Shown: piece by piece, positions 6,760 through 62,749 of the stretch
How the letters are laid out: the number at the start of each line of letters is the position of its first letter
How positions within the stretch are numbered: the first letter of the stretch is position 1
IMG/VR virus record: IMGVR_UViG_3300025600_000001
Coordinates: 1-64,000 of that record
Strand: one strand, 5' to 3'
Origin: a virus
DNA length: 64,000 nt
The notes under the pieces: model-generated
Database searches by the model: none
What the model was told of the DNA's origin: nothing
Seen by the model: the letters and a program-made list of their open reading frames with translations, nothing else
Program-made: the position numbers and the translations under genes

Positions 6760-7730
6760 GCTGCAATTATTTTCTTAGTTTTTAATTTACTCTCTAATAT
6801 AAGAAGTTCTTCTTGATGATCATCATCAATGAGATATTTTACTAACTCATCCTCATTTTTTGCTACTTCATATTCTCCTTCGTATATACTACCACTAGGT
6901 TTTAATCTATATATCGAATGTGTAATAGATTGTTTCACTAAATCTTTTATATGGAGCAAGTTTTCCTTCATATCAGCAAATCTTCCAAATACTTCAACTG
7001 TAGAAAGTCCTTGGAAAGTACCACTCTTGAATTCGGTATCTTTTAGAAGTGTATCTACCTGATTGTAGATAAAGTCTTCTTTAGATTCTTCTGTTACAGG
7101 AAGTCCAAGTAAACGTGCTACTTTTCTTTTCTTTTCAGGAGTCATCACATCGAATTTAATAATAGCCTTATTGATGAGTTGTTTCTTTTTGTATACAATC
7201 GCTACTTCAATCTCATCATCAACTACATAAAATTGTGTATCTGCAGGATATTCTCCTCGCTCCCATGCCTGAAAACTTGATGCAATTGTAGGATGTACTT
7301 TTAACCAAGCAAAAGTTAATTCCTGAAAAGTAATACCACAATCAAATAGATTATCACCATCTAACAATTTTGCAGGTTGAACATGTCTTTGATCATCATT
7401 TGATGTTGAGAGACCATAGTTCCAGAAACTAGAACGAGGTCCTAAATCAATCTCACCTAATGCTTCTTCAAGTTTTAATCTTAAACTTCTTACACGTTCT
7501 GTCTCAAGTTCTTTTTCAAGAGGATCTTGAATTCGTTTGATATAAGCAGCATCAGGATCAAGTCCTGTTCTGTATTTACCATCCAACTCTTTATATGGAT
7601 ACTTAAATACCCCTGTACCAGGAATTCTTGTAAGTCCATTTTTATACTTGGCTAAACTGCCTTCCATTGTTTCCTGTTGAGAATTACCATATTCTCGTTT
7701 GATTACTGAAATCTTTCCAACTTTGCCCAT
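6756..7730 (-). CDS. Conserved crAss-like protein following the major capsid gene
   Basis: 324-aa ORF; synteny only. Confidence 0.55.
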   Translation of the reverse strand: MGKVGKISVIKREYGNSQQETMEGSLAKYKNGLTRIPGTGVFKYPYKELDGKYRTGLDPDAAYIKRIQDPLEKELETERVRSLRLKLEEALGEIDLGPRSSFWNYGLSTSNDDQRHVQPAKLLDGDNLFDCGITFQELTFAWLKVHPTIASSFQAWERGEYPADTQFYVVDDEIEVAIVYKKKQLINKAIIKFDVMTPEKKRKVARLLGLPVTEESKEDFIYNQVDTLLKDTEFKSGTFQGLSTVEVFGRFADMKENLLHIKDLVKQSITHSIYRLKPSGSIYEGEYEVAKNEDELVKYLIDDDHQEELLILESKLKTKKIIAA

Positions 7731-7757
7731 ATGTAGTTTATGTTAACTTAATGTTTG

Positions 7758-7830
7758 TAGCGGGGATCAGACTCGAACTGACGATCCTTGGATTATGAGT
7801 CCAATGAGATACCAACTTCTCTACTCCGCA
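7758..7830 (-). tRNA. tRNA-Met (CAT), initiator-like
   Basis: Reverse complement reads TGCGGAG-TA-GAGA AGTTGGTA TCTC-A-TTGGA CTCATAA TCCAA-GGATC-GTCAG TTCGAGT CTGAT-CCCCGCT-A. Cloverleaf with a 1:72 mismatch; CCA not encoded. Confidence 0.9.
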
Positions 7831-7844
7831 ATGTTATAAATTCA

Positions 7845-7881
7845 ATGGTTGCTTCCCAGATTACTCTGGGAAACTTCCATT
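7845..7881 (-). terminator. Hairpin between MCP and tRNA (terminator or processing site)
   Basis: ttcccaga-ttac-tctgggaa inverted repeat, extended by aatgg/ccatt. Confidence 0.45.
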
Positions 7882-7936
7882 AAAAAGGCAATATATAAAA
7901 CACAGACAGAAGATCAATTAAAATTATTCTTCAATT

Positions 7937-9490
7937 CTAGTACTGCGGGATTTCTTCAATTAAGACTGTACGAGACAGATCTTCAATGAATACATCACAA
8001 CGATCTTTCATCCAAAGTTCGTAACCTGGAAATTTATTAGCTGAACTCATACCCTGAGATTTCGCAAAACCTAAGTGGTGACGAGTACCATCAATATAAC
8101 CCCAAGTCATCGAAGGAGCACCTTGCATACGTACTTCACGTATGTTATTAATCATAGAACCATCACTCATTGGAGAAACATCAAACACCATAAATACAGG
8201 TGTAGATTTCTTGTTCTGACCAAACTCCAGATTACTCTGAGGAAGATCAAGTTCTTTTAAGTGAACAAGTTCAACACGACCAGTTTCACGAGTAACCATT
8301 GCATCAAATGCAAAGTTATAAGTGATATGTTGACCTTCACCCTGCATAAATCTGTTTCCAGAATCTGCCATAAATGTAAGTCCACTGTTTAAAGCATCAT
8401 TCTTTAAAGCCTGTTGAAATACATCAAACCCTGCTTCATTAGTATACATCTTGACCCTACGGTCTTTTACATCAACACGTCTATAGAACAGATCACCAAA
8501 TACCGCACGAATCAAATTAGCAGAGAACTCTCCACGATTGTACTGAACAAGGTTTCCATTATTACGCATACGATGATATACACCAGCAGAGGTACGTTTT
8601 AATTCCTGACGAGAACCCTTAGATTTAACTGTACCTGGTTTTGACCAGATCATACGTTTAACCTTTAATTCGAGCATCGCTTTACGCATCCAGAATTCAA
8701 TAAACGGTTCCCATTTTACATCATTACGTGTAAGAGGAAGTTGATTTCTACGTTGAGGAGCATATACTAAAATATCCAGAGCTTTACCAGCAGCATCTTT
8801 CATCATCTTATCATCAGCCCATTCTGTGATTTTGTGTTCAAAACCATAACCAGAAGCCAAACTTTCGAACATTGTAATCTCTTCACCCAAACGAGGAAGA
8901 CCTAACAAGTCCTGATCAAATTCACCAATAGCTGCATCAACTAATTCTAGTTCGATACCAACCTGAAGGAATGTAGAAGTTACAAAATCTACCATAGGAT
9001 TATCTGTTACCAGAGTCCATGTATAGAGATAACCCATGTTCCATGGCATAGGATCTTTTACACAATACCAACGAGGACCGTATTGTCTTGATCCTACAGA
9101 TACAATTGCATTCATAGAGAATTCATTTGTATCTAATACAGTTTGAAACTCCTGTCCATCAATACCTGGTTTCGATAAGGCATGTGTAGAACTAGGAATA
9201 TCAATAATTTTTGGAAATTTGTAAGGTACTGCAATTTTCCATTTCCAAGCATCACTATTATTATCAATATAATAAGGTGTGCTCTTGTTAATCATATCTA
9301 GGAAGTCATTACTATACAGTGAACTCTGTGTGTAAAGACTAATGATTTTTTTATCATAGTCCGCAGGTTCAGTACTGTGAAATGATTCCAGATGATTTGC
9401 ATCAGTTAGTTTTCCTACAGCACGTTTGTCCATTGATGCGACTCTGGCGTAGGTAAAGCCTGTTAATCCTGGGATTGTTTGAATAGCCAT
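7937..9490 (-). CDS. Major capsid protein (crAss-like)
   Basis: 517 aa, in the order terminase-portal-acidic protein-this gene; higher-GC codon usage suggests high expression. Confidence 0.85.
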   Translation of the reverse strand: MAIQTIPGLTGFTYARVASMDKRAVGKLTDANHLESFHSTEPADYDKKIISLYTQSSLYSNDFLDMINKSTPYYIDNNSDAWKWKIAVPYKFPKIIDIPSSTHALSKPGIDGQEFQTVLDTNEFSMNAIVSVGSRQYGPRWYCVKDPMPWNMGYLYTWTLVTDNPMVDFVTSTFLQVGIELELVDAAIGEFDQDLLGLPRLGEEITMFESLASGYGFEHKITEWADDKMMKDAAGKALDILVYAPQRRNQLPLTRNDVKWEPFIEFWMRKAMLELKVKRMIWSKPGTVKSKGSRQELKRTSAGVYHRMRNNGNLVQYNRGEFSANLIRAVFGDLFYRRVDVKDRRVKMYTNEAGFDVFQQALKNDALNSGLTFMADSGNRFMQGEGQHITYNFAFDAMVTRETGRVELVHLKELDLPQSNLEFGQNKKSTPVFMVFDVSPMSDGSMINNIREVRMQGAPSMTWGYIDGTRHHLGFAKSQGMSSANKFPGYELWMKDRCDVFIEDLSRTVLIEEIPQY

Positions 9491-17111: not shown

Positions 17112-17966
17112 TTATACTCTTTTAAAATAGTATCCTCTATGTTTGTATTTACCAAAAGGGGCATTAATACACTTACGTACCTTCAGTAATAAAAACTCTT
17201 CCTGACAATCCTTTATCATTTTATAATTCAACTCTTCCCCTGTATTAATATTAATAGCGACAATAGGAATCCTCTTTAAATTTCTATCTTTCCTAGGAAT
17301 AATATCTTCATGAGATTTTTTGATGTATTGCTTACTAGGATAATCTCTCCACGTTTTCTTAATAAGAGAAGAAGATTTGTGTTTCTTAAAATTAATATAA
17401 TCAAATTCTGGATCATATATTTCCTTTTTTACAACTATCCATCCATATAAAGATTTTCGTTTACATTTATCCTCCCAATGAGAAGCAAGATCAGTAATTT
17501 TAGACTGACTTTTTATTCCTGTAGTTATACTAACTTCTTTAGTACCATTTACTTCTATTACCTCTTTTGTATTCATATTTATACAAACATATTCTGTAGT
17601 TGATATAACACTCTTTGTAATGTTTTCATCCTGTCTATATAAAGGAATACTACCAGGAAGACATCCGTTAAAACCAAACTCTCTTAAGTGAGCATTATAA
17701 TATAATACCCATTTAGTCTCAATTGCTTCATATTCTTGTTTAGTTAAACTATATGACAATACTTCTAAAATACTAAATGTAAAAGTTTGTTCTCCATATA
17801 AATTCCAGGCAGCCTGCAAATGAGTGTTTGTGTGTTGGTTTTTTCTTAAATTACATTTATGCTCTACCCATCTTTTATTAATTAATGTAGAATATCCTAC
17901 ATATACTTTTTTACTAACAGTGGAACTTATTAAATATATTCCAGCAACCTTATAATCAACTTTCAT
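17112..17966 (-). CDS. GIY-YIG homing endonuclease
   Basis: AGIYLISSTVSKKVYVGYS...RWVEH...HTNTHLQAAWNLYGE. Confidence 0.85.
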   Translation of the reverse strand: MKVDYKVAGIYLISSTVSKKVYVGYSTLINKRWVEHKCNLRKNQHTNTHLQAAWNLYGEQTFTFSILEVLSYSLTKQEYEAIETKWVLYYNAHLREFGFNGCLPGSIPLYRQDENITKSVISTTEYVCINMNTKEVIEVNGTKEVSITTGIKSQSKITDLASHWEDKCKRKSLYGWIVVKKEIYDPEFDYINFKKHKSSSLIKKTWRDYPSKQYIKKSHEDIIPRKDRNLKRIPIVAININTGEELNYKMIKDCQEEFLLLKVRKCINAPFGKYKHRGYYFKRV

Positions 17967-29903: not shown

Positions 29904-30875
29904 ATGTACAATTTAAATAAAGAAGAATTAGAAGATTTGTTTATAAAACAATCAAAAACATGTAAAGAAATAGCAAAGTATTTTAATTTGCCAATAATAA
30001 CTATTCAAAGACATTTGAGAAAACATAATCTAAGAAAAATAAGAAAAGAAACACCTTCATATGATGAGATTATTCAATTAAAACAAAAAGGCAAAACACA
30101 AACAGAAATAGCAAAATTATATGGTATAAGTAAATATACTATATCTAAAACTGTTCGTAGAAAACAAAAATTTGAGAGTGTACATCAAATAAATAATAGT
30201 AAAGTCGATGAGTCGAATGAAATGTTTTGGTATTTAGTTGGATTAATATCTGCAGATGGTCATGTTTGTTCTACAAATTCTATTGATATATATCAAACAA
30301 ACTCACTCTTCTTAACTAAATTAGGTAACTTTTTTGAACATACAGGAAAACTTACTTCTTGTATTACAAAAAATTCTACAAAGAATAAAATATACAGATT
30401 ACCTTTATATTCTATAAAATTAAAACAATGGTTTGTAGAAAAAGGAATAGAAAATGATAAAAGATACAATTGTCCATTCTTGTTAGTTCCTGAAGAATTT
30501 ATGAAATATTATATACGAGGTATATTTGATGGAGATGGATGTTTATATTATTCATTTACTTCAGGAATATTGATTTCTAGTCAGATAGAAATAAGTAGTG
30601 CTTCTGAATTAATGTTAACAGGATTGATGAAATATTTAAATAAATACAAGCCTAAAAGATATATAGTAAATAGAAATCAAGGAATTTGTGAAAAAATAAT
30701 AATAAACACAAAGAAAGAAATAGAAGATTTTTTAAAATGGATGTATTCAGGTAAATATTTAGATTATTGTTTATTTAGAAAATATAGATCTTATCTGATG
30801 TTGATGGAAATATTCAAATTACAAGAAAGTGTACAAAATCAAGCAATTTTTAATATAGAAAATAATAAAATATGA
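29904..30875 (+). CDS. LAGLIDADG homing endonuclease with N-terminal HTH repeats
   Basis: YLVGLISADG and YIRGIFDGDG motifs; stop overlaps the polymerase start (ATGA). Confidence 0.85.
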   Translation: MYNLNKEELEDLFIKQSKTCKEIAKYFNLPIITIQRHLRKHNLRKIRKETPSYDEIIQLKQKGKTQTEIAKLYGISKYTISKTVRRKQKFESVHQINNSKVDESNEMFWYLVGLISADGHVCSTNSIDIYQTNSLFLTKLGNFFEHTGKLTSCITKNSTKNKIYRLPLYSIKLKQWFVEKGIENDKRYNCPFLLVPEEFMKYYIRGIFDGDGCLYYSFTSGILISSQIEISSASELMLTGLMKYLNKYKPKRYIVNRNQGICEKIIINTKKEIEDFLKWMYSGKYLDYCLFRKYRSYLMLMEIFKLQESVQNQAIFNIENNKI

Positions 30876-37293: not shown

Positions 37294-37770
37294 ATGAAGT
37301 CTACTTTTGAAGATGAACTTGTTTGTATGATTCCAAGACTTAAAAACTTCGCCTTTAGATTGACTAGGAATATTGAAAATAGTGAGGACTTGTTAAGTGA
37401 AACCATCTTACAATCATTGAAAAATAAAGCAAAATATAAAGATGATACGAATTTTAAAGGATGGATAACTACTATAATGAAAAACTGTTTTGTAAATAAT
37501 TATAGACGATCAGTTAGACACGGAATACAATTAGAACTCGAAGATGTGAAAGGCAATAACATTTGCACCAGTAGAGAAATCGACAATAAAGTATATTTAA
37601 ATCAGATATTAGATTTTATAAATAACCAAGATAAAAAACTAAGTATTCCAATGATTTTATTTTCACAAGGATTCAAATATGAGGAAATATCCGAAATGCT
37701 TGGTATTCCTTTAGGTACTGTGAAATCAAGAATATTTATAATGAGAGAAAAATTAACTGAAATTTTATAA
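37294..37770 (+). CDS. ECF-type RNA polymerase sigma factor
   Basis: Region 2 AFRLTRNIENSEDLLSET...FKGWITTIMKNCFVNNYRR; region 4 GFKYEEISEMLGIPLGTVKSRIF. Confidence 0.9.
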   Translation: MKSTFEDELVCMIPRLKNFAFRLTRNIENSEDLLSETILQSLKNKAKYKDDTNFKGWITTIMKNCFVNNYRRSVRHGIQLELEDVKGNNICTSREIDNKVYLNQILDFINNQDKKLSIPMILFSQGFKYEEISEMLGIPLGTVKSRIFIMREKLTEIL

Positions 37771-43455: not shown

Positions 43456-43841
43456 ATGAAAAAATTAAAAGGAAAAACATTAGATGAACTTCTAGAAGAT
43501 ATTCAAGTACTAGAAATAGATGAAGAAGTATGTAGAATAAATTATACTCCTGGACTAATTGGATGGTATGGCGTAATAAATGATCATTGTATTATTGCTT
43601 ATTTTAGAAAAGAAAAGAATGCTCTTAGATTTAGATTAGATTACATTAATCAAATATTAAATAGTATATGAAAAGATATGTATTTGCTATAACGATTACA
43701 GGATTTGGAGAAACTCCTGATGAAGCATGGAAAGATGCTGTTGAAGCTACTAATCTTGAAGATGATCCTATACCTGAAGAGGATATATACGATGAGTATG
43801 AAATGGATGATGATGAAGAAGTAGAGGACTATAGGAATTAG
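43456..43841 (+). other. Two small ORFs (43456-43671 and acidic 43668-43841)
   Basis: ATGA-coupled short ORFs. Confidence 0.5.
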
Positions 43842-43920
43842 AGATCAACGACAATCTGAATTTGCAGATATGTGGATTCAAAGTGGAATGTTTGGTATAT
43901 TAAATCTATGTCCTAGTTGA
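43831..43920 (+). pseudogene. Orphaned 5' stub of the SF2 helicase gene
   Basis: IGIRDQRQSEFADMWIQSGMFGILNLCPS* aligns with MEDIRTRRQREFANLWLESNMMNIMNLCPR of 44763..45845. Confidence 0.85.
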
Positions 43921-43951
43921 TAATTAAATTGTAATTTTGTATATTTGTACT

Positions 43952-44776
43952 ATGGAAATAAATAAAAATTTAATTAGAGTTTCTGGTATCTATAAGATAG
44001 AGAATATAGAAACAAAAGAATGTTATATAGGGAGTACCTTAAATATTTACAATAGAGCACATTCCTATAAATGCTTAGGAAAACAAAATAAAATTCATAG
44101 TACAAATTTACAAAAAGCAATAAATAACTATGGAATAGATATTTTTACTTTAGAAGTTTTAGAAAAAGTATATTTTGAAGAAGGTGTTTTAAAAAGTGAA
44201 AAATTGAAAATTCTTCACGATAAAGAACAAATATATTCCGATAATACTAATCTAAAATATAATAAAAGAAAAAATATTAATAAAAATACTGGAATAACTC
44301 TATCAAAAGAAACCAAAGAAAAAGTATCTACAACTCTTAAACGAATTTTTAAAGATGGTACAAGAATAATAGGAAGAATTTATTCTCATAATATAAAAGT
44401 ATCTATGTTTACAATTACTGGAACTTTTATTAAAGATTTTCCTGGATTAGCCCATTGTGCAGAATATTTAAATGTATCACCCTCATCAATCAATTATGCG
44501 TTAAAAAGCAAAAGACATGTTATAAAAAATCATATTATATTGAAACTTCAAGATAAAGATGAAATTAAAAATTTTATAAATATTCCATTAAATAAAAATA
44601 CTAATGGAAAAGCTATAAAAATTCTAGATACATTAGACGATAGTATACTGGAATTTATAAATTGTAAAACTTGTGCAAATATTATAAAATGTAAAGTTGA
44701 TACAATAGTTATTGGTTATAAAAAAAATAGATTAATTAAAAAAAGATATAAAGTAATAACCTATGGAAGATATTAG
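43952..44776 (+). CDS. GIY-YIG homing endonuclease (likely start ATG 43952)
   Basis: SGIYKIENIETKECYIGS motif; own promoter TATATTTG at 43940-43947. Confidence 0.85.
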   Translation: MEINKNLIRVSGIYKIENIETKECYIGSTLNIYNRAHSYKCLGKQNKIHSTNLQKAINNYGIDIFTLEVLEKVYFEEGVLKSEKLKILHDKEQIYSDNTNLKYNKRKNINKNTGITLSKETKEKVSTTLKRIFKDGTRIIGRIYSHNIKVSMFTITGTFIKDFPGLAHCAEYLNVSPSSINYALKSKRHVIKNHIILKLQDKDEIKNFINIPLNKNTNGKAIKILDTLDDSILEFINCKTCANIIKCKVDTIVIGYKKNRLIKKRYKVITYGRY

Positions 44777-45845
44777 AACGAGAAGACAACGTGAGTTTGC
44801 TAATTTATGGTTAGAGTCTAATATGATGAATATCATGAATTTGTGTCCCAGATTTGGAAAAATTAGAGTTGCTATAAATATCCTTGAACAGTTAAATCCT
44901 CATTGTACAGTATTAATTACTTATCCTGACAATAAAATAAGACATTCTTGGGAAGAGGATTTTGTAAAAAGAGGATATAATAATCCTAATATAACATTTA
45001 CTACACATCTTTCTCTCAAGAAATATGTAGATAAGATATTTGATATTATCATAATAGATGAAATACATCTAATTTCCACTGCACAAATGGAAATCTGCAA
45101 AGAACTTTTTAAAGAAAATCATGTAATGTTGGGTCTTACAGGTACATTAGCATCAGATACTAAAAATTGGTTACTATCTGCTTTGCATTTACCAGTAGTA
45201 GCAAATTACTCTATCAGTCAAGCTATATCTGAAGGAGTAATATCAGACTATGATATTACAGTTATTAAAGTTCCTTTGGATACAACAACTCTACAGGTTT
45301 ATAAGAAGCAACGTAAAACTGAGAAACAACAATTTGATATGCTCTCTTACGTTATTAATAAACAACAACAAGAAGGAAGAGATACAATGTTTATGCGTTT
45401 AGCTAGAATGAGAATTATTCAAAACAGTTTAAGTAAAATAAATAAAACTAAAGAAATACTAAAACAGTATGAAAATAATAGAATATTGGTCTTTTGTGGT
45501 ATTACAGCAGTTGCTGATAGTTTGGATATACCTTCTTTTCATAGTAAGTCAACCAATAAAATGACTTTTCAAAATTTTACAGAAGGCAATATTAAGCATT
45601 TGGCAGTTGTCAAAATTGGTGCTACAGGAATAACCTATAAACCTTTAAATCAGATAATTATAAATTATTTTGATAGTAATGCAGAAGATTTAGCACAAAA
45701 ATTGAACAGAGCTATGTCTTTTGAATACGATAATCCAGAGAAGAAGGCTCATATAACAATCATATGTTCAACAGAATCTGTCGAGCTTTTGTGGTTGAAG
45801 AAGGCTTTAGAATTTTTTAGTCCAGAAAAAATTAAATATCTATAA
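44763..45845 (+). CDS. Superfamily 2 helicase (DExH)
   Basis: CPRFGK (motif I), IIIDEIH (II), GLTGT (III). Confidence 0.85.
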   Translation: MEDIRTRRQREFANLWLESNMMNIMNLCPRFGKIRVAINILEQLNPHCTVLITYPDNKIRHSWEEDFVKRGYNNPNITFTTHLSLKKYVDKIFDIIIIDEIHLISTAQMEICKELFKENHVMLGLTGTLASDTKNWLLSALHLPVVANYSISQAISEGVISDYDITVIKVPLDTTTLQVYKKQRKTEKQQFDMLSYVINKQQQEGRDTMFMRLARMRIIQNSLSKINKTKEILKQYENNRILVFCGITAVADSLDIPSFHSKSTNKMTFQNFTEGNIKHLAVVKIGATGITYKPLNQIIINYFDSNAEDLAQKLNRAMSFEYDNPEKKAHITIICSTESVELLWLKKALEFFSPEKIKYL

Positions 45846-46047: not shown

Positions 46048-46878
46048 ATGGAGAAAGAAGATGTAATATTACCAGATGAAATTAGTAAAGTAGTTATATC
46101 AGCACCAAGAGATCTTGCTATAATTGGAATTCCTAAAAGTGGAAAAGGAACTATATTAGGAAATTTTACATTAACTCATAATGCTCTTGTACTAGATCTT
46201 GAAAAAGGAGGATATGAATATATTCCTGCTAGAAAAATGTCTACTTATACAGGACAGGAAACAAGTCAATGGGAAAGTTTTCAAAACTTTATTAAATATC
46301 GTAATCTTTTATTGGAAAATAAAGGAAAATATGAATATCTAATTATAGATGGATTATCCGATCTTGATAGTTTATCCGACCTCGGTGGAACTCTGTCTTA
46401 TATGAATGGAATTATAGGTAAGAATTTTAATAGACCTAAATTAGCAAATGGATTATATGGTGAAAAATATAAACCGACTGATCCAGAGTTTAAATCAGTA
46501 TTAACATTACCTGATGGGGCTGGTTATATGAGTACTCGAAATTGGTTTCTTCAACAAATTGAAATGTTTAGACAAATAGCACCATATAGAATTTATGCTG
46601 CTCATATTGCTGATAAATATATTAAAGATAATGGAAAAGAAGAAGTGATAGGTAGTGAAATTTCTCTTACTGGAAAATTAAAAACAATTTTTGCAAGTAG
46701 AGTGACTGCTTTAGCAAAATTGGTAGTAGATGAGAATGAACGTTATCTTAATTTTGATGTTCAAAATGATAGTATTGTTGCAGGAAGTAGATCTCCTAAA
46801 TTGAAAGGAAAGATACTAATTTCAAGACAAGAATCAGATGGAACTATAATAACCTTTTGGGATAATATTTATGGATAA
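46048..46878 (+). CDS. AAA_24 / Sak4-like P-loop ATPase
   Basis: GIPKSGKGT, LDLEKG, LIIDG and AAH motifs; lies upstream of the SSB-like gene. Confidence 0.75.
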   Translation: MEKEDVILPDEISKVVISAPRDLAIIGIPKSGKGTILGNFTLTHNALVLDLEKGGYEYIPARKMSTYTGQETSQWESFQNFIKYRNLLLENKGKYEYLIIDGLSDLDSLSDLGGTLSYMNGIIGKNFNRPKLANGLYGEKYKPTDPEFKSVLTLPDGAGYMSTRNWFLQQIEMFRQIAPYRIYAAHIADKYIKDNGKEEVIGSEISLTGKLKTIFASRVTALAKLVVDENERYLNFDVQNDSIVAGSRSPKLKGKILISRQESDGTIITFWDNIYG

Positions 46879-47530
46879 CACTTTTTGTATATACGTATTT
46901 TCTGATCAATGGGGTGTACCAAAATATGTTGGTAAAGCTAAAGATTTTGCAAAAAGAATGGATGAGCATCTAAATAGAGATAGATTTAGATATAGTTCTA
47001 CTTGGTTCTATAGATGGTTAAATAAACAAATTGCAAACGATATAGAATTCTTTATGGATATATTAGAGGAAGTTACTCAGGAAACTTGGATAGAAAGGGA
47101 AATCTATTGGATAAAACATATTAAAGATAATGGATACAGATTAACAAATATGACTAATGGTGGGGATGGCAACAATAATCAAATCCATACTAAAGAGAGT
47201 AGATTAAAAAGATCCAAAAGAATGATGGGACACGAGGTCTCTGAAGAAACAAGAAAACGTATATCAAAAGGTCTCACTGGTAAAGTGATATCTAAAGAAA
47301 CTAGAAAGAAGTTATCTAATCTTAATAAAGGAAAAATATGTTTAGAATCTACTAAACTAAAATTTTCAAAAGTAATAGATCAATATGATTTAGCTAAGAA
47401 TTTTATTCAAAGTTTTACTTCTCTAACTAATGCTGCAATCTTTTTAAATTGTAGAAAATCATCTTTGAGTAATGCTATGAAAAGAAAAATTAATGGTAGA
47501 TTTAAAAACTATTTATGGAAATATAAATAA
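46871..47530 (+). CDS. GIY-YIG homing endonuclease with NUMOD3/NUMOD1-like domains
   Basis: CIYVF...KYVGKA; REIYWI..LTNMTNGGDG; SEETRKRIS repeats; IDQYDL...WKYK. Confidence 0.85.
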   Translation: MDNTFCIYVFSDQWGVPKYVGKAKDFAKRMDEHLNRDRFRYSSTWFYRWLNKQIANDIEFFMDILEEVTQETWIEREIYWIKHIKDNGYRLTNMTNGGDGNNNQIHTKESRLKRSKRMMGHEVSEETRKRISKGLTGKVISKETRKKLSNLNKGKICLESTKLKFSKVIDQYDLAKNFIQSFTSLTNAAIFLNCRKSSLSNAMKRKINGRFKNYLWKYK

Positions 47531-48568: not shown

Positions 48569-49387
48569 ATGTATAACAAGAATAGAAAAGAGCAAGTTAA
48601 AAATCTTTGGGATACTGGATTAGGAGCTACAGAAATATCTAAATTTTTAAATATTTCAATAAGTAATGTTTCAACTTATTTAACACAATCCTTAGGATCA
48701 GGTAGAAAAGGAAGATTTATTTATAAAAGAAGAATATTTACGCTAAATGAATCTTTTTTTGAAAATATAGATACAGAAGCAAAAGCTTATTTTTTAGGAC
48801 TACTTGCTGCAGATGGTAATTTAAGTAGTTCTCAGAATTCAGTTAGAATAGGATTGCATGAAAAAGATAAAGAAATATTAGAGTGTTTTCGAGAAAATCT
48901 AAATTATACAAAACCTCTAAAATTTGTTAAAAAAGTTAAAGAACCTGGATGGAATAGAAGTGATCAGTATTTATTAGAAATAAGCTCAACTATTTTTAGG
49001 AAAAGTTTAGAGAAACATGGATTAACACCAAACAAATCTCTCACATTAGTTTTCCCAACAACTATTCCTTTAGAGTATCAACATGATTATATTAGAGGAT
49101 ATTTTGATGGTAATGGTTGTATTCATATAGACAAACGAGATCACGGTAGTATAATTATTGCTAGTAGTGAGATGTTTTCTAAAAGTCTTATTGAAGTATT
49201 ACAAACTTTTGGTATTAGATCAAGTACATCTAAACACTATAAAGCTAATTGTTTTTATACTCGTTCATTTGGATATGATAATGTAGAGAATTTTTATAAT
49301 TTCATGTATAAAGATTCTACTATTTTTCTTGATAGAAAAAAACAAATATTTGAAAATTGGATAAATAAAAGAAATAAGAAATTATGA
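48569..49387 (+). CDS. LAGLIDADG homing endonuclease
   Basis: YFLGLLAADG and YIRGYFDGNG motifs; promoter-like TATCTTTA at 48546. Confidence 0.85.
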   Translation: MYNKNRKEQVKNLWDTGLGATEISKFLNISISNVSTYLTQSLGSGRKGRFIYKRRIFTLNESFFENIDTEAKAYFLGLLAADGNLSSSQNSVRIGLHEKDKEILECFRENLNYTKPLKFVKKVKEPGWNRSDQYLLEISSTIFRKSLEKHGLTPNKSLTLVFPTTIPLEYQHDYIRGYFDGNGCIHIDKRDHGSIIIASSEMFSKSLIEVLQTFGIRSSTSKHYKANCFYTRSFGYDNVENFYNFMYKDSTIFLDRKKQIFENWINKRNKKL

Positions 49388-50183: not shown

Positions 50184-51187
50184 TAACAGGAACTAGAAAA
50201 ATTGAACTTACACCAGAGTCAGTTCTTAAAAAGATTTCAAGTTATGATATTTTTCGTAGATATATGCCTGATACATTCTGGAAGATCAATCAAGCTACTA
50301 TTTCTCCATTTAGGAAAGAAACTAATCCCTCCTTTCTGATAGGAAATAGAGGAGGTACGCTCACCTTCATAGATTTTACTGACACAGCTAAACGTGGTGA
50401 TTGTTTTACATTCATGAAACAATTATTTATGCTTACCATGGACGAAGCATTAACTAAGATTGATCAGGATTTTGGACTTGGAATTTCTCACAAAGGAACT
50501 AATATTGGTGAATACAAAAAAATAGTAGCAGAATATAAACAACCTGAGGAATTAGGTAAACGTTATGCACTTATTCAAGTAATCACTAGAAAGTTTACTA
50601 AAGAGGAATTAGACTATTGGGCCCAGTATTATCAAAACATTGATGATCTGAGAGATAATCACATTCATTCTATAAAATCTCTATTTCTAAATAAGAGTAG
50701 ATTTGCTTTAAAGGATGATGAACTTCGTTTTGGTTATCTTTATAATGGTCATTGGAAGATTTATAGGCCATATATAGAGAAAAGAACAAAATGGGTTCCA
50801 AATAATGTACCTATTACTGCTTTAGATGGTAAAGATGATATCCTAAATTGTAGAAGTACTGTAATGATTCAAAAATCTAAAAAAGATTATATGTTAATGA
50901 AAAAAGTATATCCTTATAATATTGCAGTACAAAATGAAGGACATGCTTGTTTCTCTGATGAGAATGTAGAATATATTAGAACTAATTCTACCAGACAGGT
51001 TTTATCATTTGATAGTGATGAACCTGGTGTAGCCAATTCACAACAGATTACTAAGATCTTTGGATTTGACTACTGTAATGTTCCTAGAATGTATCTACAG
51101 GAGAATATAAAAGATTGGGCAGACTTAGCAAAAGCTCATGGATTAGAAGTTATTAAAGAAATTTTAAAAACGAAAGAATTATTATAA
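50180..51187 (+). CDS. DNA primase (crAss-like, TOPRIM)
   Basis: SPFRKETNPSF N-terminus, KSKKD, FDSDEPG and KDWAD motifs. Confidence 0.8.
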   Translation: MITGTRKIELTPESVLKKISSYDIFRRYMPDTFWKINQATISPFRKETNPSFLIGNRGGTLTFIDFTDTAKRGDCFTFMKQLFMLTMDEALTKIDQDFGLGISHKGTNIGEYKKIVAEYKQPEELGKRYALIQVITRKFTKEELDYWAQYYQNIDDLRDNHIHSIKSLFLNKSRFALKDDELRFGYLYNGHWKIYRPYIEKRTKWVPNNVPITALDGKDDILNCRSTVMIQKSKKDYMLMKKVYPYNIAVQNEGHACFSDENVEYIRTNSTRQVLSFDSDEPGVANSQQITKIFGFDYCNVPRMYLQENIKDWADLAKAHGLEVIKEILKTKELL

Positions 51188-51588
51188 TGGAAATATGTAT
51201 TGATTTTGATGGAACTTGTGTAACACATGACTATCCAAATATAGGTAAAGATATAGGTGCAGTATCTGTATTAAGACAACTTATAGAGAAAGGTCATAGA
51301 TTAATCTTATTTACAATGAGAGGTGATAGAGTAAATGATGATCTTACTATGGGAACAACTTTAACTAATGCTATAAATTGGTTTAAAGAAAATGATATAC
51401 CTTTATATGGAATTAATCGTAATCCTGATCAACGTAGTTGGACTACAAGTCCTAAAGCCTATGCTCAATTATATATTGATGATGCTGCTTTAGGTTGTCC
51501 TTTAACATCTGATCTAGTAATATCAGATAGACCTTTTGTAGACTGGTACGAAGTTTTAAATTTATTAATAGATAAAGGAATATTATGA
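51187..51588 (+). CDS. HAD-like phosphatase (BT0820-like)
   Basis: IDFDGTCV, LILFTMR and KAYAQLYIDD motifs. Confidence 0.8.
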   Translation: MEICIDFDGTCVTHDYPNIGKDIGAVSVLRQLIEKGHRLILFTMRGDRVNDDLTMGTTLTNAINWFKENDIPLYGINRNPDQRSWTTSPKAYAQLYIDDAALGCPLTSDLVISDRPFVDWYEVLNLLIDKGIL

Positions 51589-52015
51589 GAAAATCAATCA
51601 CATTTTTAACTTTGGAAATAGAAGTAGAATTTGACTATCAACCAGAAGAAAAGGAAGTAAGAACTCTTTCAAATGGTGATCCTGGTTATCCAGGATATCC
51701 TGCTTCAGTAGAAATTAGTAATATTTATTTCAAAGGAGATGATATTACTTCTTTTTTTGAAGAATCAGGACTTATTTATAAATTAGAAGAACAAATATTA
51801 ACAGAAATTAAAAATTAAACAAAATGGAAACTGTAAAAAATCCAGTAGTAATTTCAAACAACGTATTTAAAGGTGTAGTATGGAACAAAAAATCCATTAA
51901 GGCAGTAAATAAAGTTGCACAAGCTTTATTGAATCTCACAGAGTTATTTAAAAGCCAAAACATCAAAATTGATTGTATGATAAAGGTTAATGATGAAAGT
52001 GAAAAACAAATTTAA
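51585..52015 (+). other. Two small hypothetical ORFs (51585-51818, 51824-52015)
   Basis: ORF track; co-oriented. Confidence 0.55.
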
Positions 52016-52028
52016 AAATTAAATTAAA

Positions 52029-52118
52029 ATGTCAGACATTAAGACGTACAAAGTATCACAAGCAGCAATGCTAGCAGTGCTGCCACCAGAATCCACAAGA
52101 ACGTATAATTCTTCATAA
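52029..52118 (+). pseudogene. Orphaned 5' stub of the DUF932-like gene
   Basis: MSDIKTYKVSQAAMLAVLPPESTRTYNSS* aligns with MKESYSVSKAMLISTPIPESTRTYKSFS of 53124..53999. Confidence 0.85.
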
Positions 52119-52155
52119 ATTTTGAAATGTCATAGGAATTAGTTACATTTGGAAT

Positions 52156-53127
52156 ATGAAAAATATAACTATAAATTTTATATTAGCAAGAACTTCTGCT
52201 AATTATGAAGATATACATTGTACTGGTATATATAGAATATATCACATCATTAAACCATCTATTTTTTACATTGGAAGTGCTTCTTCTAATAAAAGATGGA
52301 GAGAGGGTTTTAAACAACGATGGGTAGAACATATCAAAGAACTTCGTAAAAACATTCATCATTCTCCATTCTTACAAAGAGTTATTAATTTATATGGAAT
52401 AGAAGGATTAAGATTTGAAATAATTGAAAAATGTGAATCTTCTATATGCATACGTAAAGAACAATTTTGGTTAGATTTTTATAAACCATTTAAAAATAAA
52501 GGTTATAATACTTGTAAAATTGCAGGAAGTTCTATGGGTTATAAATTTTCTGAAGATCAAATAAAAAATAGAAAAAAAATATTTCAATATGATTTAAAAG
52601 GTAAATTCATTGAAGAATATAAAAGTTTAACTGATGCAGCAAAACAAACAAATACTAGAATTAATGAAATCAAAGATTGTGCTAAAAAAAGAATACAATA
52701 TACGAAAGGACATATATGGAGATATGAAAAAGAAAGTGTAGATTCTATATTTCATATTAAGATTTTTAAGATAGCGTGCTACTTTGATGGACAATTTCAA
52801 TTTGTAGATTCTTTACAAAAAGTAGAAGAAAAAACAAAAGTCCATAAAAAGTTTATTTATAACTGTATTAATAAAAATCTAAATAAAACATCTAATAATT
52901 GGTTATTTAGAAAATACGATATTGAAAATTGTCCAGAAAAAATTGATTGTGTTACAGTATTAAGATATAAATATGAACTTATAGAAAATGAAAAATCTAT
53001 CATTTTTAATACGTTAATATTATTAACAAGTTATTTAAAAGTTCATAGAAAATATTTTGAAGAAAAAATGAAAGTAACAAATGAAATAGTTTTTAATAAT
53101 AAAATAATTAAAAAATTAATAAAATGA
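52156..53127 (+). CDS. GIY-YIG homing endonuclease with NUMOD1-like domain
   Basis: TGIYRIYHIIKPSIFYIGS motif; promoter TTTG(52121)-N19-TACATTTG(52144-52151). Confidence 0.85.
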   Translation: MKNITINFILARTSANYEDIHCTGIYRIYHIIKPSIFYIGSASSNKRWREGFKQRWVEHIKELRKNIHHSPFLQRVINLYGIEGLRFEIIEKCESSICIRKEQFWLDFYKPFKNKGYNTCKIAGSSMGYKFSEDQIKNRKKIFQYDLKGKFIEEYKSLTDAAKQTNTRINEIKDCAKKRIQYTKGHIWRYEKESVDSIFHIKIFKIACYFDGQFQFVDSLQKVEEKTKVHKKFIYNCINKNLNKTSNNWLFRKYDIENCPEKIDCVTVLRYKYELIENEKSIIFNTLILLTSYLKVHRKYFEEKMKVTNEIVFNNKIIKKLIK

Positions 53128-53999
53128 AAGAAAGTTATTCAGTTTCTAAAGCAATGTTAATAAGTACACCTATACCAGAGAGTACTCGTACTTATAAAAG
53201 TTTTTCTCACAAACAGTTAATAGATTTAACTCTTGAGGGTATTCACCATGCAGGATTTCAAGTGGGAAAAGAATTATATTCTTCTGCAAAAGATGGTCTT
53301 GTAGCTAATGGAAGATATACTATAGCAAATATAGCTGATTCAGAAATGCAATTACAAATTACATGGAGAAATAGTTATAATAAAAGTTTACCACTAACCT
53401 TTTCACTCGGTGCTATGGTGTTAGTATGTTCCAATGGAATGCAAAAATCTCAAGGAATGGGATCTTTTAAGAAAAAACATCAAGGACAAATTCAAAGTTT
53501 TACTCCACAAGCTATAGGCGAATACATCAAAGGAGCTGAAGAAGTATTTAAACAAATGCAAATAGAAAGAGAGCAAATGAAACAAGTCACACTCTCAAGA
53601 ACGCTGCAAGCAGAGATTATAGGAAAAATGTTTATAGAAGCAGAATTTATTAAGTCTACTCAATTGAATATTATCAAAAGAGAACTTGATAATCCTACAC
53701 ATGATTATGGAGATCCTAATAGTTTGTGGTCATTGTATAATTATACAACTTTTGCAATGCGTGAATTGCATCCATCTTTATATCTACAGGATCATATTGA
53801 TGCTCATTCATTCTTTGTCACTGAATCAGGAATCATAGTTAATACTCCTGAACCTATTACAATTCGTCCTGTAGAAGATAAGAGACAATTAAACTTGTTT
53901 GATGAACTTCTTAATCAAGAAACAGAAGAAGTCTTGGCTGAAGTGTATAATAGTGAAGAAGAAGAAGAAGAGGAAGAATGGGAACCAGAACAACTATAG
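53124..53999 (+). CDS. DUF932/DUF945-like protein
   Basis: WRNSYNKS...GAMVLVCSNGM...KKKH...SLWSLYN motifs. Confidence 0.75.
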   Translation: MKESYSVSKAMLISTPIPESTRTYKSFSHKQLIDLTLEGIHHAGFQVGKELYSSAKDGLVANGRYTIANIADSEMQLQITWRNSYNKSLPLTFSLGAMVLVCSNGMQKSQGMGSFKKKHQGQIQSFTPQAIGEYIKGAEEVFKQMQIEREQMKQVTLSRTLQAEIIGKMFIEAEFIKSTQLNIIKRELDNPTHDYGDPNSLWSLYNYTTFAMRELHPSLYLQDHIDAHSFFVTESGIIVNTPEPITIRPVEDKRQLNLFDELLNQETEEVLAEVYNSEEEEEEEEWEPEQL

Positions 54000-54220
54000 G
54001 TGCAAAACCTGCAATAGTAAAAGTTCCAGGAACTTTTATTAAGATTGGTGATTACAGAATAATAAAATCAAGTGTGAAGAGGTATCAACCAAGTAAAAAT
54101 GGATATATCAACATCTATTTTAACTCCTCAATAAATCATCCTGATTTTAAGAGTTTTCACTATACATCAACTAAGTTACAACAAGAAGTTTTAGACTATT
54201 TAGATTCAATTTATTTATGA
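53978..54220 (+). CDS. Hypothetical protein
   Basis: ORF track. Confidence 0.55.
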   Translation: MGTRTTIGAKPAIVKVPGTFIKIGDYRIIKSSVKRYQPSKNGYINIYFNSSINHPDFKSFHYTSTKLQQEVLDYLDSIYL

Positions 54221-54345
54221 ACAAAAGTAAAACAATACTATCAGAAGAGGCTTTTGAGCCTCTTTTTGGTAGTTGGTGGCCTAAGATTAACAAATTCTCT
54301 GTTATTTTATTTGTATATTCTACTTATTTAGTATATATTTGTTAG
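54217..54345 (+). pseudogene. Orphaned 5' stub of the uracil-DNA glycosylase gene
   Basis: MNKSKTILSEEAFEPLFGSWWPKI(N...) aligns with MNNLDWKKFEPLFGTWALKIK of 55343..56134; similarity ends near 54290. Confidence 0.85.
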
Positions 54346-54369
54346 ATTAATTTAATACAACATTACTAT

Positions 54370-55350
54370 ATGACATATTTTAAACTTACTCCAGAAATTC
54401 ATAAAAATATAGCAGATGAATATATTTCATCTATAACTACTCAACAAGATTTAGCAAAAAAATATAATGTTAGTACAGTTATGATTTCAAATATATTAAA
54501 AAAATTTAAAATTCCTACAGATCATCGAAGAGGATTTTATAATGTAGATATTAATTATTTTAAAATTATAGATACACCTAATAAATCATATTTTTTAGGT
54601 TTATTTCATGCCGATGGAAGTAACTCTGAGGAGCATAACTGTGTTAGAATTTCTTTACAGGAAAAGGATAAAGAAATATTAGAAAAATTAAAAAAAGATA
54701 TAAAATATTCAGGTCCTTTATATTATTTAAAAAAACAAGGAAATAGAAGTAATCAATTTTCATTAAATATTGTAGCAAAAGAATTATCACAAGATTTGGT
54801 AATTCTAGGTTATCCTAAGAATAAAACTTACAAAGTAGTATTTCCAGAATACTTAGAACAGTCATTAGTAAGACATTTTATTAGAGGATTGTTCGATGGA
54901 GATGGATGTATTCATGCTAAATATAAACATAGTTTAAGTATCGTTGGTACATGTAATACTTTGTTAGGAGTAAAAGATTATTTACAAGAAATATTAAATA
55001 TAAATTCTGTAATAGTAGAAAGTAAATCTAAAAATATATTTAGATTAAGTATATGTAAAAAGATAGATATATTCAATACATTATGTCATTTATATGAAAA
55101 TAGTGAATTGTATTTACAAAGAAAATATGACATCTTTCATCAAGTGTACATGATTCAGAAAGAACATTTATATTGGCAAATATACTGTAAAAATTTAAAA
55201 ACTAATGAAATTAATATTTTTAAAAATATGCAAGAAACTAAAGAATTTTTTGGATTAAAATCCTATGCAGCAATATCTTATTGTATCCATAAAAGTAAAA
55301 CTAAAATTTTTAGAAAAACGTATTATATAAATTTATTGAAAAATGAATAA
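54370..55350 (+). CDS. LAGLIDADG homing endonuclease
   Basis: YFLGLFHADG and FIRGLFDGDG motifs; promoter TTTG(54310)-N20-TATATTTG(54334-54341). Confidence 0.85.
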   Translation: MTYFKLTPEIHKNIADEYISSITTQQDLAKKYNVSTVMISNILKKFKIPTDHRRGFYNVDINYFKIIDTPNKSYFLGLFHADGSNSEEHNCVRISLQEKDKEILEKLKKDIKYSGPLYYLKKQGNRSNQFSLNIVAKELSQDLVILGYPKNKTYKVVFPEYLEQSLVRHFIRGLFDGDGCIHAKYKHSLSIVGTCNTLLGVKDYLQEILNINSVIVESKSKNIFRLSICKKIDIFNTLCHLYENSELYLQRKYDIFHQVYMIQKEHLYWQIYCKNLKTNEINIFKNMQETKEFFGLKSYAAISYCIHKSKTKIFRKTYYINLLKNE

Positions 55351-56134
55351 TTTAGATTGGAAGAAATTCGAACCACTTTTTGGTACATGGGCTTTAAAAA
55401 TAAAGCCTTTTTTTGACTTAGGAGGTTTTGATAAAATATATGAGTTTCTTAAAAAAGAGTCAAAAAGAGGTAAAGAAATCGCACCTATGTCATCTCTTGT
55501 ATTTAGAGCATTTCGAGAGACAGACATAAATACTCTTAAAGTAGTAATTGTTGGTTTAGCACCATATCATACCTTTTATAATGGATCGTCTATTGCGGAT
55601 GGTTTGTGTATGAGTTGTTCTATTACTAGTAGATTACAACCTAGTCTTTCTAATTTCTATAATGCTATAGAACGAGAACTTTATAATGGACTTAATTTAA
55701 ATATGTATAAAAATCCAGATCTTACCTATTTAGCCAGAGACGGAATTCTTCTATTGAACTATGCTCTCACCACTAGTAAAAATAAACCAGGGGATCATTG
55801 TGTTCTTTGGGAACCTTTTATGAAATTTCTATTTGAACAGGTGTTAGATACTATTGGAGCTCCTGTTATTTTCTTAGGACGTGAAGCAGCCAAACTAGAG
55901 AGATATACAATGCCTTTTAATTGGATATTTAAGTTATCTCATCCTGCCTCAGCAAGTTATCAAGGTATCGAATGGGATTCTGAAGGAACATTTAAAACTA
56001 TAAATAAGATTTTATGGGAGCGAAATAAAGAAACGATAAATTGGTTACAATTAGATAGTATAAACGAAAAGGAGATAAAAAATGAAGACAAAGTTAAAAA
56101 ACCAGGAAAACCTAAATTTAGAAGTTCAAATTAA
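55343..56134 (+). CDS. ung: Uracil-DNA glycosylase (family 1-like, divergent catalytic loop)
   Basis: KVVIVGLAPYH (canonical GQDPYH), ADGL, PSL.N, GILLLN and SHPAS motifs. Confidence 0.8.
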   Translation: MNNLDWKKFEPLFGTWALKIKPFFDLGGFDKIYEFLKKESKRGKEIAPMSSLVFRAFRETDINTLKVVIVGLAPYHTFYNGSSIADGLCMSCSITSRLQPSLSNFYNAIERELYNGLNLNMYKNPDLTYLARDGILLLNYALTTSKNKPGDHCVLWEPFMKFLFEQVLDTIGAPVIFLGREAAKLERYTMPFNWIFKLSHPASASYQGIEWDSEGTFKTINKILWERNKETINWLQLDSINEKEIKNEDKVKKPGKPKFRSSN

Positions 56135-60346: not shown

Positions 60347-60778
60347 TAATTCGTAGAAAAAAAGATTTATGGAAAGGATATCTTGTAGATGGTAGAGTTT
60401 ATCAAACTGAGACACATACAAGAAGAGACGATTTACTTGCATGTATTGCACGTAAAGAAAGTGTTATGTGGATATTAAATGATGGACGGAAAATGACTCT
60501 TACCTTTGATCAATTAAAGGATGAAGTTGAAGATATAGGTACTCCACAGAAAAGTATAAAGAATACTTCACCTTATAGTTTATGGTGTTATACATTTATA
60601 GAAGATAACTAAAATGAAACAGAAATTATTAAAATCGACAATTAGTGTACTAGAAGCCTTAAAAGAAGATGCGAATATGGCATTGAATGGAACTTGGGAT
60701 TGTACTGAACCAGGTTTCAGAGCCCAAATTAGAGCAATTAATGGAGTTTTATCAGAACTAAAAGCAAAATTAAAATGA
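60343..60778 (+). other. Two small ORFs (60343-60612 and 60614-60778)
   Basis: Packed, co-oriented. Confidence 0.5.
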
Positions 60779-60843
60779 TAGAAGGAATTAAAAAAATAAA
60801 TTCTGAAAGTGATTATCGTAAGATACAACTTGATTCAAGTTAA
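60775..60843 (+). pseudogene. Orphaned 5' stub of the PD-(D/E)XK nuclease gene
   Basis: MIEGIKKINSESDYRKIQLDSS* aligns with MIKGINKNIDEKSYRTICLDSASS of 61691..62749. Confidence 0.8.
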
Positions 60844-60911
60844 AAAAGAGAAAAGTTATAGGATTATATATTTAATTTTTGTATATTTATATATAACTAA
60901 GTTATAATAAG

Positions 60912-61685
60912 ATGATTGGAATCTATAAAATAACAAGTCCTTCGAATAAAGTTTATATAGGACAAAGTTGGAATTTGATTAAAAGAGAGAAAGATTATAA
61001 GTCTTTAGCTAATATAATTAGACAAAGAAAAATATATAATTCTATGAAAAAATATGGAGTAGATAAACATATTTTTGAAATACTTCATATTCTTTCAGAT
61101 ACTACTATACAAAAAGAATTAGATTATTGGGAAATATATTATTGGAAGTATTTTATATCTCAAGGATTTGAAATGCTTAATATTAAAGAACCAGGAAAAG
61201 GAGGAAGATTAGATATTGAAACTAAAGAAAAGATATCTAAATCAAATAAGGGAAGAATTAGAAGTGAAGAAGTAATGAGTAAAATTAAGAATTTAGATAG
61301 ATATAATCTTCCTATTCTAATGTTAAATTTAAATGGAAAAATCATAAGAGAGTTTAGAAATATAAATTCATGTTCACGAGAATTACATGTTAGTTCTTCT
61401 AATATAAAATCAGTAATGAATGGTAAAACTAAAACATGTTTATCTCATATTTTTATAAAAAAAGTAGATTATGATGAATCTAAATTTACACAAATAATAG
61501 TTCCTGGTGGATGTACTGAGGTAAATCAATATGATTTAGATAATAATTTTATTAAAAGTTTTTTAAGTTTTAAAAATATTAGATTAGAATTAGAATTAAA
61601 AATAGGATGTGATCCTAATATTATAAGAGCTTGCAAATCTGAAAATAGAATAGCTTATGGTTTTAAATGGAAATATAAAAATTAA
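60912..61685 (+). CDS. GIY-YIG homing endonuclease with NUMOD3/NUMOD1-like domains
   Basis: IGIYKITSPSNKVYIGQS; ETKEKISKSNKG; VNQYDL...AYGFKWKY. Confidence 0.87.
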   Translation: MIGIYKITSPSNKVYIGQSWNLIKREKDYKSLANIIRQRKIYNSMKKYGVDKHIFEILHILSDTTIQKELDYWEIYYWKYFISQGFEMLNIKEPGKGGRLDIETKEKISKSNKGRIRSEEVMSKIKNLDRYNLPILMLNLNGKIIREFRNINSCSRELHVSSSNIKSVMNGKTKTCLSHIFIKKVDYDESKFTQIIVPGGCTEVNQYDLDNNFIKSFLSFKNIRLELELKIGCDPNIIRACKSENRIAYGFKWKYKN

Positions 61686-61690
61686 TAAAT

Positions 61691-62749
61691 ATGATTAAGG
61701 GAATAAATAAAAACATAGATGAAAAAAGTTATCGAACAATTTGTCTTGACAGTGCTAGTTCTTTAAAAGATTTTTCACTAGATAGAAAATTATATTTTAA
61801 ACGTTACGTTTTGTATGAGGTAGTAGAAGAGAAGTTTAATCAATCAATATTGATGGGAAATCTTGTTGATTGTATGTTATTAACGCCTAATTTATTTGAT
61901 AATAAATTTTATATGTCAGCATGTGCATCTTCGCCTTCTGGATTGATGTTAGAATTTGTAGAAGCTCTTTATAGAGCAACTAGAGATGCTATGGGAGAGG
62001 ACAAAATCTTAACAAAGAATTTTGAAGAACTGTCAAAGATTGCATATTTAGCCAGTGGCTTCAAAATTAAATATGAAGCAGTGATAGGTAAGTTTATGGA
62101 TTCTGACAATCAAATTTACTATGACGAATTAGTAAAGGTGAGAACTAATAATCTACTAGTAGTTACAATTGATCAGGTAAATAAAGCTGAACAAATTGTT
62201 GAAGAATTAAAAGTTAATTTTGTAACTAAAGAAATTCTTACACGTATAAATAGTCAAAGATGGACTGTTCTAGTACAACATCAGGTAGAAAACTATTTGG
62301 TTGATAATCATCCTTTTAAGAGTATGATGGATTTATGTATTATAGACCATCAAGAAAAGATTATTCAGATTTATGACTTGAAATGTGTATGGACCGTTGA
62401 AGGCTTTTTTTCTGACTACTATCTTTTTCGTAGAGCATACATTCAGGGATATTTATATTGGAGAGCTGCTATGTATATGAGTAATGATATTAATAGTGAA
62501 TTCTACGAATATACTGTTCTACCTCCAAGATTTATTGTATGTGATAGTATTAACTATTTTAATCCCTTAATATATACAATGTCAAATGATGATCTAAAGG
62601 ATGCGTATGAAGGATTTGAACACAAAGGACATAAATATCCTGGTGTAAAAGAGATAATTTTAAATCTTGATTGGAATATAAATAATAATATCTGGGGGAT
62701 GAGTAGAGAAAACTATATTAACAATGGTATAGTAAATATTAAAGATTAG
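61691..62749 (+). CDS. PD-(D/E)XK exonuclease (RecE/DUF3799-like)
   Basis: SASSLK N-terminus, GNLVD..L, KSMMD...IYDLK...Y.Q.Y.Y motifs. Confidence 0.7.
   Translation: MIKGINKNIDEKSYRTICLDSASSLKDFSLDRKLYFKRYVLYEVVEEKFNQSILMGNLVDCMLLTPNLFDNKFYMSACASSPSGLMLEFVEALYRATRDAMGEDKILTKNFEELSKIAYLASGFKIKYEAVIGKFMDSDNQIYYDELVKVRTNNLLVVTIDQVNKAEQIVEELKVNFVTKEILTRINSQRWTVLVQHQVENYLVDNHPFKSMMDLCIIDHQEKIIQIYDLKCVWTVEGFFSDYYLFRRAYIQGYLYWRAAMYMSNDINSEFYEYTVLPPRFIVCDSINYFNPLIYTMSNDDLKDAYEGFEHKGHKYPGVKEIILNLDWNINNNIWGMSRENYINNGIVNIKD

Follow-up and report, generated by a model that had tools for sequence, protein, structure and literature searches.

The DNA analysed here, hereafter the window, comprises the first 64 kb (64,000 nucleotides) of the virus record IMGVR_UViG_3300025600_000001, which is 117,568 bp long and carries direct terminal repeats. 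The G+C content of the window is 29.6%. A Crassvirus major capsid gene is present (Pfam Crass_capsid, 4.9e-24), and the genome was therefore assigned to the crAss-like phages. On the plus strand of the window, at 52029-53999, a free-standing homing endonuclease gene lies inside the 5' end of a gene of the DUF932 family. The displaced original start of the DUF932 gene, referred to as the stub, occupies 52029-52108, beginning at its ATG and closing with the TATAA of codons Tyr26/27. Next come a junction filler, TTCTTC (52109-52114), which was delimited by multi-genome alignment, and a conserved leader (52115-52155) reading ATAAATTTTG...TACATTTG..ATG, in which the TTTG and TAnnTTT blocks are kept in all four genomes that carry the cassette. 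The endonuclease gene (52156-53127) encodes a 323-amino-acid GIY-YIG and NUMOD1 protein, recognised from domain and profile matches. Its stop codon overlaps the start of the downstream gene (ATGA). The intact DUF932 gene (53124-53999) is a hybrid of 291 codons that begins MKESYSVSKAMLISTPIPESTRTYKSFSH; its substitute, cassette-borne 5' end starts at 53124 and probably extends to 53213, a limit taken from two pairs of related loci described below.

The stub open reading frame (ORF) at 52029-52118 comprises 29 codons and reads MSDIKTYKVSQAAMLAVLPPESTRTYNSS before a TAA stop at 52116-52118, which is supplied by the conserved leader. It has its own ATG, is preceded by an A/T-rich leader, and starts 13 bases past the stop of the upstream ORF (51824-52015). 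The peptide PESTRTY is common to the stub and the start of the intact gene, with 8 of the 21 coding bases differing, and the corresponding 23-mers (52086-52108 and 53175-53197) are identical at 15 of 23 positions. The layout and both 23-mers agree with the initial annotation of this DNA. The local BLOSUM62 score of the stub against the DUF932 gene was 67, above the chance level given by a shuffle maximum of 54 (n = 100). A blastn search of 51000-55400 against known phage records gave no match over the cassette and only distant matches to the neighbouring gene at 51187-51588. Two scans of metagenome contigs, one by enzyme alignment and one with a degenerate pattern, returned no match, the patterns of one scan being poorly chosen. 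Contigs of two peat-metagenome runs, from which this DNA may originate, bridge 51632-53849 exactly, and no empty-site joint was seen in them, such contigs dropping rare variants.

Pfam analysis of the window enzyme identified NUMOD1 only (residues 140-176, E = 2e-8), and the Pfam GIY-YIG model gave no match to this protein alone, even at E ≤ 1. When the window enzyme was combined with two homologs as a profile, residues 23-120 matched the catalytic domain of I-TevI (1mk0, E = 1.7e-6). The Pfam GIY-YIG cut-off of 22.6 bits was passed by two homologs, those of loci L134 (29.8 bits) and L086 (23.2 bits), and the window enzyme also matches PHROG homing-endonuclease families. All four homologs keep the GIY and YIG motifs (G24, Y26, Y38-G40) and the residues R55, H59, E102 and N118 without change; of these, R55 and E102 fall on the only two positions that differ between two solved I-TevI chains. 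The I-HmuI NUMOD-like model is a further match to the homologs, with scores under the curated cut-off of that model. On these matches, the ORF at 52156-53127 encodes an I-TevI-type GIY-YIG enzyme. Approximately 70 extra C-terminal residues (52920-53124) are present in the window enzyme and absent from its three homologs (323 versus 255-258 amino acids), and this tail, which may be an additional DNA-binding part, had no significant Pfam match. Rfam analysis gave no match in 51800-53400 at E ≤ 1 and, over the whole window, one tRNA and no group I intron at the gathering score. A group I intron was ruled out on the lack of an Rfam match and because the downstream DUF932 gene is complete with its own ATG.

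The downstream gene matches Pfam DUF932 (PF06067) over residues 72-209 (1.8e-8, 34.9 bits versus a gathering score of 23). A search with this family returned 238 relatives, of which the best 80 were used, and searches were also made with the enzyme. Among the 86 unique related loci, three other phages carry a homolog of the enzyme directly upstream of DUF932, namely L051 (identical to L050 and L067), L134 and L086. Their enzymes are 67-74% identical to one another and 51-53% identical to the window enzyme. When viral contigs were searched with a profile of the four enzymes, no others were returned (4 contigs, 3 distinct phages). The L051 stub reads MENYNTAKGMLLGAPIPQQTKSYKP and the L134 stub MTTSDNYSMTKGILVNANIPQQTRTYKKK, each followed by a stop, and the L086 stub is a start-less remnant ending ..LLETKTY. 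In all four genomes the gene homology stops at TATAA, four bases later in L051. The filler that follows is 5-6 bases long in three genomes and 16 bases in L051, with a different sequence in each, and from the filler to the enzyme ATG a conserved leader of ~40 bases runs in all four. The cassette is thus present or absent at one fixed TATAA site among related genomes, L099 and L121 being the cassette-free partners. The initial annotation had placed a GIY-YIG cassette inside the DUF932-like gene at ...TRTY|K, and the recurrence of the same enzyme family at the same TATAA in three other phages bears this out.

The boundaries of the insertion were read from base-level alignments of two pairs of loci with and without the cassette. 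Between L086 and L099, identity is 93.8% on the downstream side (1939 bases) and 86.7% on the upstream side (820 bases), the distance between these two matches being 951 bases in L086 and 102 in L099. For L134 and L121, the gene body shows 84.5% identity (626 bases), and the L134 stub region is 74.4% identical to the L121 gene start over 207 bases. In both pairs the resident gene start continues into the stub as far as TAYAAG/A, the upstream region of L134 and L121 aligning as well, and the start in use in the cassette-bearing gene does not resemble that of its cassette-free relative; for L086 and L099, the 21 codons before similarity resumes are unlike. Counted from the T of the Tyr codon, similarity returns after ~18 bases in L134 and ~21 bases in L086, and from there L086 and L099 differ by one mismatch in ~85 bases, to the end of the aligned stretch. 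These are clean insertions, in agreement with the earlier proposal that the stub represents the original start, now displaced, and that the downstream start replaces it. As read from the alignments, the foreign DNA spans a segment from just after the stub TATAA, through the leader, the enzyme gene and the new start, to about six codons past the Tyr. The 12-21 bases of the resident gene that follow TAYAAR are missing from the stub, and we therefore infer that the break occurs there. By analogy with the two pairs, the right boundary in the window would lie at ~53211-53214, ~18-21 bases past the T of the TAT at 53193.

The DUF932 alleles linked to the enzyme share two residues near this site. At the codon four before the Tyr, Ser is present in 4/4 linked alleles, while the 71 unique cassette-free sites have Gln in 49, Glu in 17, other residues in five and Ser in none. 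At the codon after Tyr-Lys, the linked alleles have Ala or Ser (4/4), and Pro is present in 69 of the 71 cassette-free sites. One wobble base, in the codon preceding that Ser, also separates all four linked alleles from the cassette-free ones. The Ser before the Tyr and the non-Pro residue after Tyr-Lys may be immunity determinants, or may merely mark the start that travels with the enzyme.

Two blocks, TTTG and TAnnTTT(G/A), are kept in all four leaders; 19-20 bases separate them, and the second stops 4-5 bases short of the ATG. The window leader carries TTTG-N19-TACATTTG at 52121-52151, an exact match to TTTG-N19-TAnnTTTG. This motif matches the Bacteroides -33/-7 (Bacteroidota-type) promoter consensus, and the leader is a possible promoter. 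Both plus-strand matches to the motif in the window lie directly upstream of endonuclease genes (starting at 52156 and 54370), the full motif being upstream of only two of the eight such genes. As a separate observation, a sigma-70-family protein is encoded at 37294-37770 (Sigma70_r2 8e-11 and region 4).

The locus is probably a replace-and-insert homing-endonuclease cassette whose specific target is the DUF932 gene 5' end in crAss-like phages. As a mobile unit it would measure ~1.1 kb (~52109-53213) and would comprise the promoter-like leader, the endonuclease gene and a substitute start reaching about six codons past T-R-T-Y-K. In a mixed infection, the enzyme would cut cassette-free alleles just after ...ACN AGR ACN TAY AAR, within the next ~12-21 bases. 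The break would be repaired from a cassette-bearing genome, with the 5' piece of the recipient pairing with the donor stub and the gene body pairing with the donor gene. The recipient's first 26 codons would be left as a stub, closed by the stop codon in the cassette leader, and the hybrid gene would be expressed from the imported start with no need for splicing. The restored gene would have to escape cutting through site differences, and those seen consistently are amino-acid changes (Ser for Gln/Glu; Ala/Ser for Pro), not the wobble changes pointed out in the initial annotation.

Several observations weigh against this explanation. The best ortholog of the window DUF932 gene is only 62% identical, and no close cassette-free relative is present among the best 80; the right boundary and the cut region in the window therefore rest on analogy with phages whose enzymes are 51-53% identical. 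Compared among themselves, the four imported starts show no clear excess of similarity over random pairs (identity 0.38-0.54 over residues 1-24, percentiles 18-74), and the evidence that they travel with the enzyme comes from their position and the two residues they share. These residues could be lineage markers rather than immunity determinants. The Ser four codons before the Tyr is also present in the window's own stub, and Ser alone therefore cannot protect against the window enzyme. Over the window as a whole, the promoter-like motif shows no enrichment (4 matches versus 2.9 expected). The variation of the filler between genomes, together with the reduction of the L086 stub to ~8 codons without a start, would also be compatible with independent one-sided insertions.

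An alternative, put forward in the initial annotation, is that the cassette-bearing allele escapes its own endonuclease through synonymous recoding of the 23-bp site. With the peptide unchanged, 8 of the 21 bases differ (Ser TCC/AGT and Arg AGA/CGT being among the codon pairs), a number on the high side of the expectation, a mean of 4.6 differences per heptapeptide. This expectation was drawn from ortholog pairs less than 65% identical, at residues of the PESTRTY types conserved in both members (41 unique genes). The window enzyme is also the most divergent of the four and, with its extra tail, may have its own specificity; with no more than 51-53% identity to the other enzymes, it could yet be one for which recoding counts. 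Against this, diverged alleles in general reach at least 8 differences with a probability of 0.067 and at least 5 differing codons with a probability of 0.27, and the 8 differences are thus within saturation and do not support a cleavage-resistant allele. Compared with the two 14-mers, 43 of the 71 cassette-free sites are nearer the stub type (ACA AGA ACG TAT AA), 17 are nearer the replacement type and 11 tie; two are within one mismatch of the replacement type, and Arg is encoded by CGN in 19. Replacement-type codons in orthologs that lack the cassette, an outcome named in the initial annotation as one that would refute its proposal, are thus found in part. The codon types are found in all roles and are swapped between stubs and linked alleles in other genomes, with CGT in the L134 stub and AGA in the linked alleles of L051 and L086; the L051 stub and the L134 linked allele are identical over 15 bases ending TATAAA. 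Furthermore, the DNA lost from the resident gene is downstream of TATAA, outside the 23-mer. We consider recoding a doubtful explanation of resistance.

One form of the recoding idea takes up the Glu-Ser that precedes TRTY in both the window stub and the replacement. Since Ser occurs in none of the cassette-free alleles, family conservation does not account for this shared pair; its two Ser codons (TCC and AGT) are from different codon families. As the stub thus already has the Ser typical of all linked, presumably immune alleles, the window cassette might be a second-round invader of a formerly immune allele, in an arms race. The diverged enzyme, with its new tail of ~70 residues, may have evolved to cut such an allele, and its own copy may be protected by PESTRTY written in other codons together with the downstream Lys-Ser-Phe. 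The start of the intact gene in L001, the nearest relative of the window stub, also lacks Pro after Tyr-Lys/Arg. We regard this scenario as unlikely; if it were true, synonymous sites would be the immunity determinant, as first suggested for this locus.

A further alternative is accidental one-sided homing, in which the enzyme gene is normally intergenic, upstream of DUF932, and the stub, no part of a regular mobile unit, is the scar of a repair that was homologous towards the gene but illegitimate on the upstream side. The filler is different in all four genomes, the L051 junction lies 4 bases deeper in the gene, and the upstream genes differ between these phages, all of which speaks for this alternative. 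However, no stub-free donor was found, and a stub or what remains of one occurs at that TATAA in every contig that carries the enzyme family. The leader also begins at the same place in all of them, and three more cassettes of the same build are present in the window. One-sided homing was accordingly judged quite unlikely as the origin of the stub.

The stub itself is closest to genes of other phages. The window stub scored 82 against the intact-gene start of L001 (16/26 residues, the best match) and 58 against the neighbouring copy in cis (12/26 residues), L001 being the phage with the most accessory genes in common with the window. Similarly, the L051 stub scored 90 and 88 against the cassette-free loci L017 and L006, respectively, and 67 against its own neighbouring copy. 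Between the window and L051 genes themselves, no common co-conversion tract was visible in 30-residue blocks. A local tandem duplication of the gene 5' end, followed by divergence and an unrelated endonuclease insertion between the copies, would account for two copies of the same 24-26 codons in the same orientation ~1.1 kb apart, but it is very improbable and was rejected, because the stubs are closer to other lineages than to the adjacent copy (window and L051) and because the L134 stub aligns with the L121 5' end and the L134 working start does not.

Eight endonuclease genes were identified in the window, five GIY-YIG and three LAGLIDADG, and tblastn with all eight at E ≤ 1e-4 found none in the remaining 53 kb of the genome. 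An upstream stub of the downstream gene's start is present at four of the eight, including the DUF932 cassette. The second cassette (43825-45845) has a stub ending IRDQRQSEFADMWIQSGMFGILNLCPS and a stop codon (43825-43920, no ATG seen), a GIY-YIG/NUMOD1 gene (43952-44776) and a helicase-like gene (44763-45845) whose start repeats the stub peptide (score of 92 versus a shuffle maximum of 51). The third (54217-56134) consists of a stub ORF (54217-54345, containing EEAFEPLFGSWWPKINKF), a LAGLIDADG gene (54370-55350) and the UDG gene (55343-56134, containing KKFEPLFGTWALKIKPFF), with a score of 55 versus 50. A perfect TTTG-N20-TATATTTG lies at 54310-54341, within the tail of this stub ORF. The fourth cassette (60775-62749) comprises the stub MIEGIKKINSESDYRKIQLDSS closed by a stop (60775-60843), a GIY-type/NUMOD1 gene (60912-61685) and a 352-amino-acid gene (61691-62749) starting MIKGINKNIDEKSYRTICLDSA, with a score of 65 versus 51. 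At the other four endonuclease genes, 17112-17966 (minus strand), 29904-30875, 46871-47530 and 48569-49387 (two GIY-YIG and two LAGLIDADG), no stub of a neighbouring gene was detectable, the scores being within the shuffle range.

The replacement of a gene end by an endonuclease ORF is already known from fungal mitochondria, where mobile endonuclease ORFs (mORFs) form gene hybrids in Allomyces macrogynus atp6 and in Glomus atp6, atp9, cox2 and nad3 (PMC3630166). As described there for mORFs, an endonuclease ORF (LAGLIDADG or GIY-YIG) and a foreign copy of a gene end are found together in a protein gene. The native end is left as a duplicate that resembles close relatives, the inserted piece does not resemble them, and no intron is involved. 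The mORFs of that account, however, replace the carboxy-terminal end and leave the native piece downstream, whereas the phage cassette replaces the start and leaves the native piece upstream with its own ATG. Unlike the organellar mORFs, the phage cassette must also supply a start codon and probably a promoter.

Among phage systems, the free-standing endonucleases of T4 cut at a distance from their own gene, according to a review of T4 (PMC2988022). The window cassette resembles the Seg/Mob type of 'intronless homing' in having a free-standing GIY-YIG phage gene with a cut site in a neighbouring conserved gene, and in that it would presumably be inherited through the repair of double-strand breaks when infections are mixed, flanking markers being co-converted. 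It differs from the intergenic Seg/Mob genes in lying within the target coding region, with a stub at each of the four window sites; the word 'duplication' is absent from the text of the review. Like the intron-encoded I-TevI of phage T4 (PDB 1mk0, 1ln0), the window enzyme combines a catalytic domain, in which the catalytic positions are kept, with a linker and a NUMOD1-type module. Unlike I-TevI, it has no group I intron, and it is a substitute coding end, not splicing, that keeps the interrupted gene functional. The literature on phage gene-end duplications and on crAss-like phages with GIY-YIG genes, subscription journals aside, did not yield this layout for phages.

On the replace-and-insert explanation, a phage homing endonuclease that brings along a substitute gene start needs no intron or intein to reside in an essential or conserved gene. 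With every homing event, a hybrid gene would arise and coding sequence would pass between distantly related phages. Half of the window's eight endonuclease genes are built in this way, so that such cassettes may regularly give rise to mosaicism and to small 'orphan' ORFs in annotated phage genomes. Natural occupied and empty sites are provided by the pairs L086/L099 and L134/L121, in which the cut site and the immunity determinants are directly testable.

The DUF932 gene belongs to a conserved primase - DUF932 - UDG - rIIA gene block. The order 293-amino-acid gene, primase, DUF932, UDG and rIIA was kept in all 46 related loci that had flanks available, and the primase gene was directly upstream of DUF932 in 66 of the 86 unique loci. 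Other endonuclease genes were noted within this block. In L032 a LAGLIDADG gene, with no stub visible, lies between the primase and DUF932 genes (1361-2150), and in L027 a GIY-type gene lies between DUF932 and UDG (3327-3872). In L030 a LAGLIDADG gene is present between residues 121 and 122 of rIIA (6160-8699).

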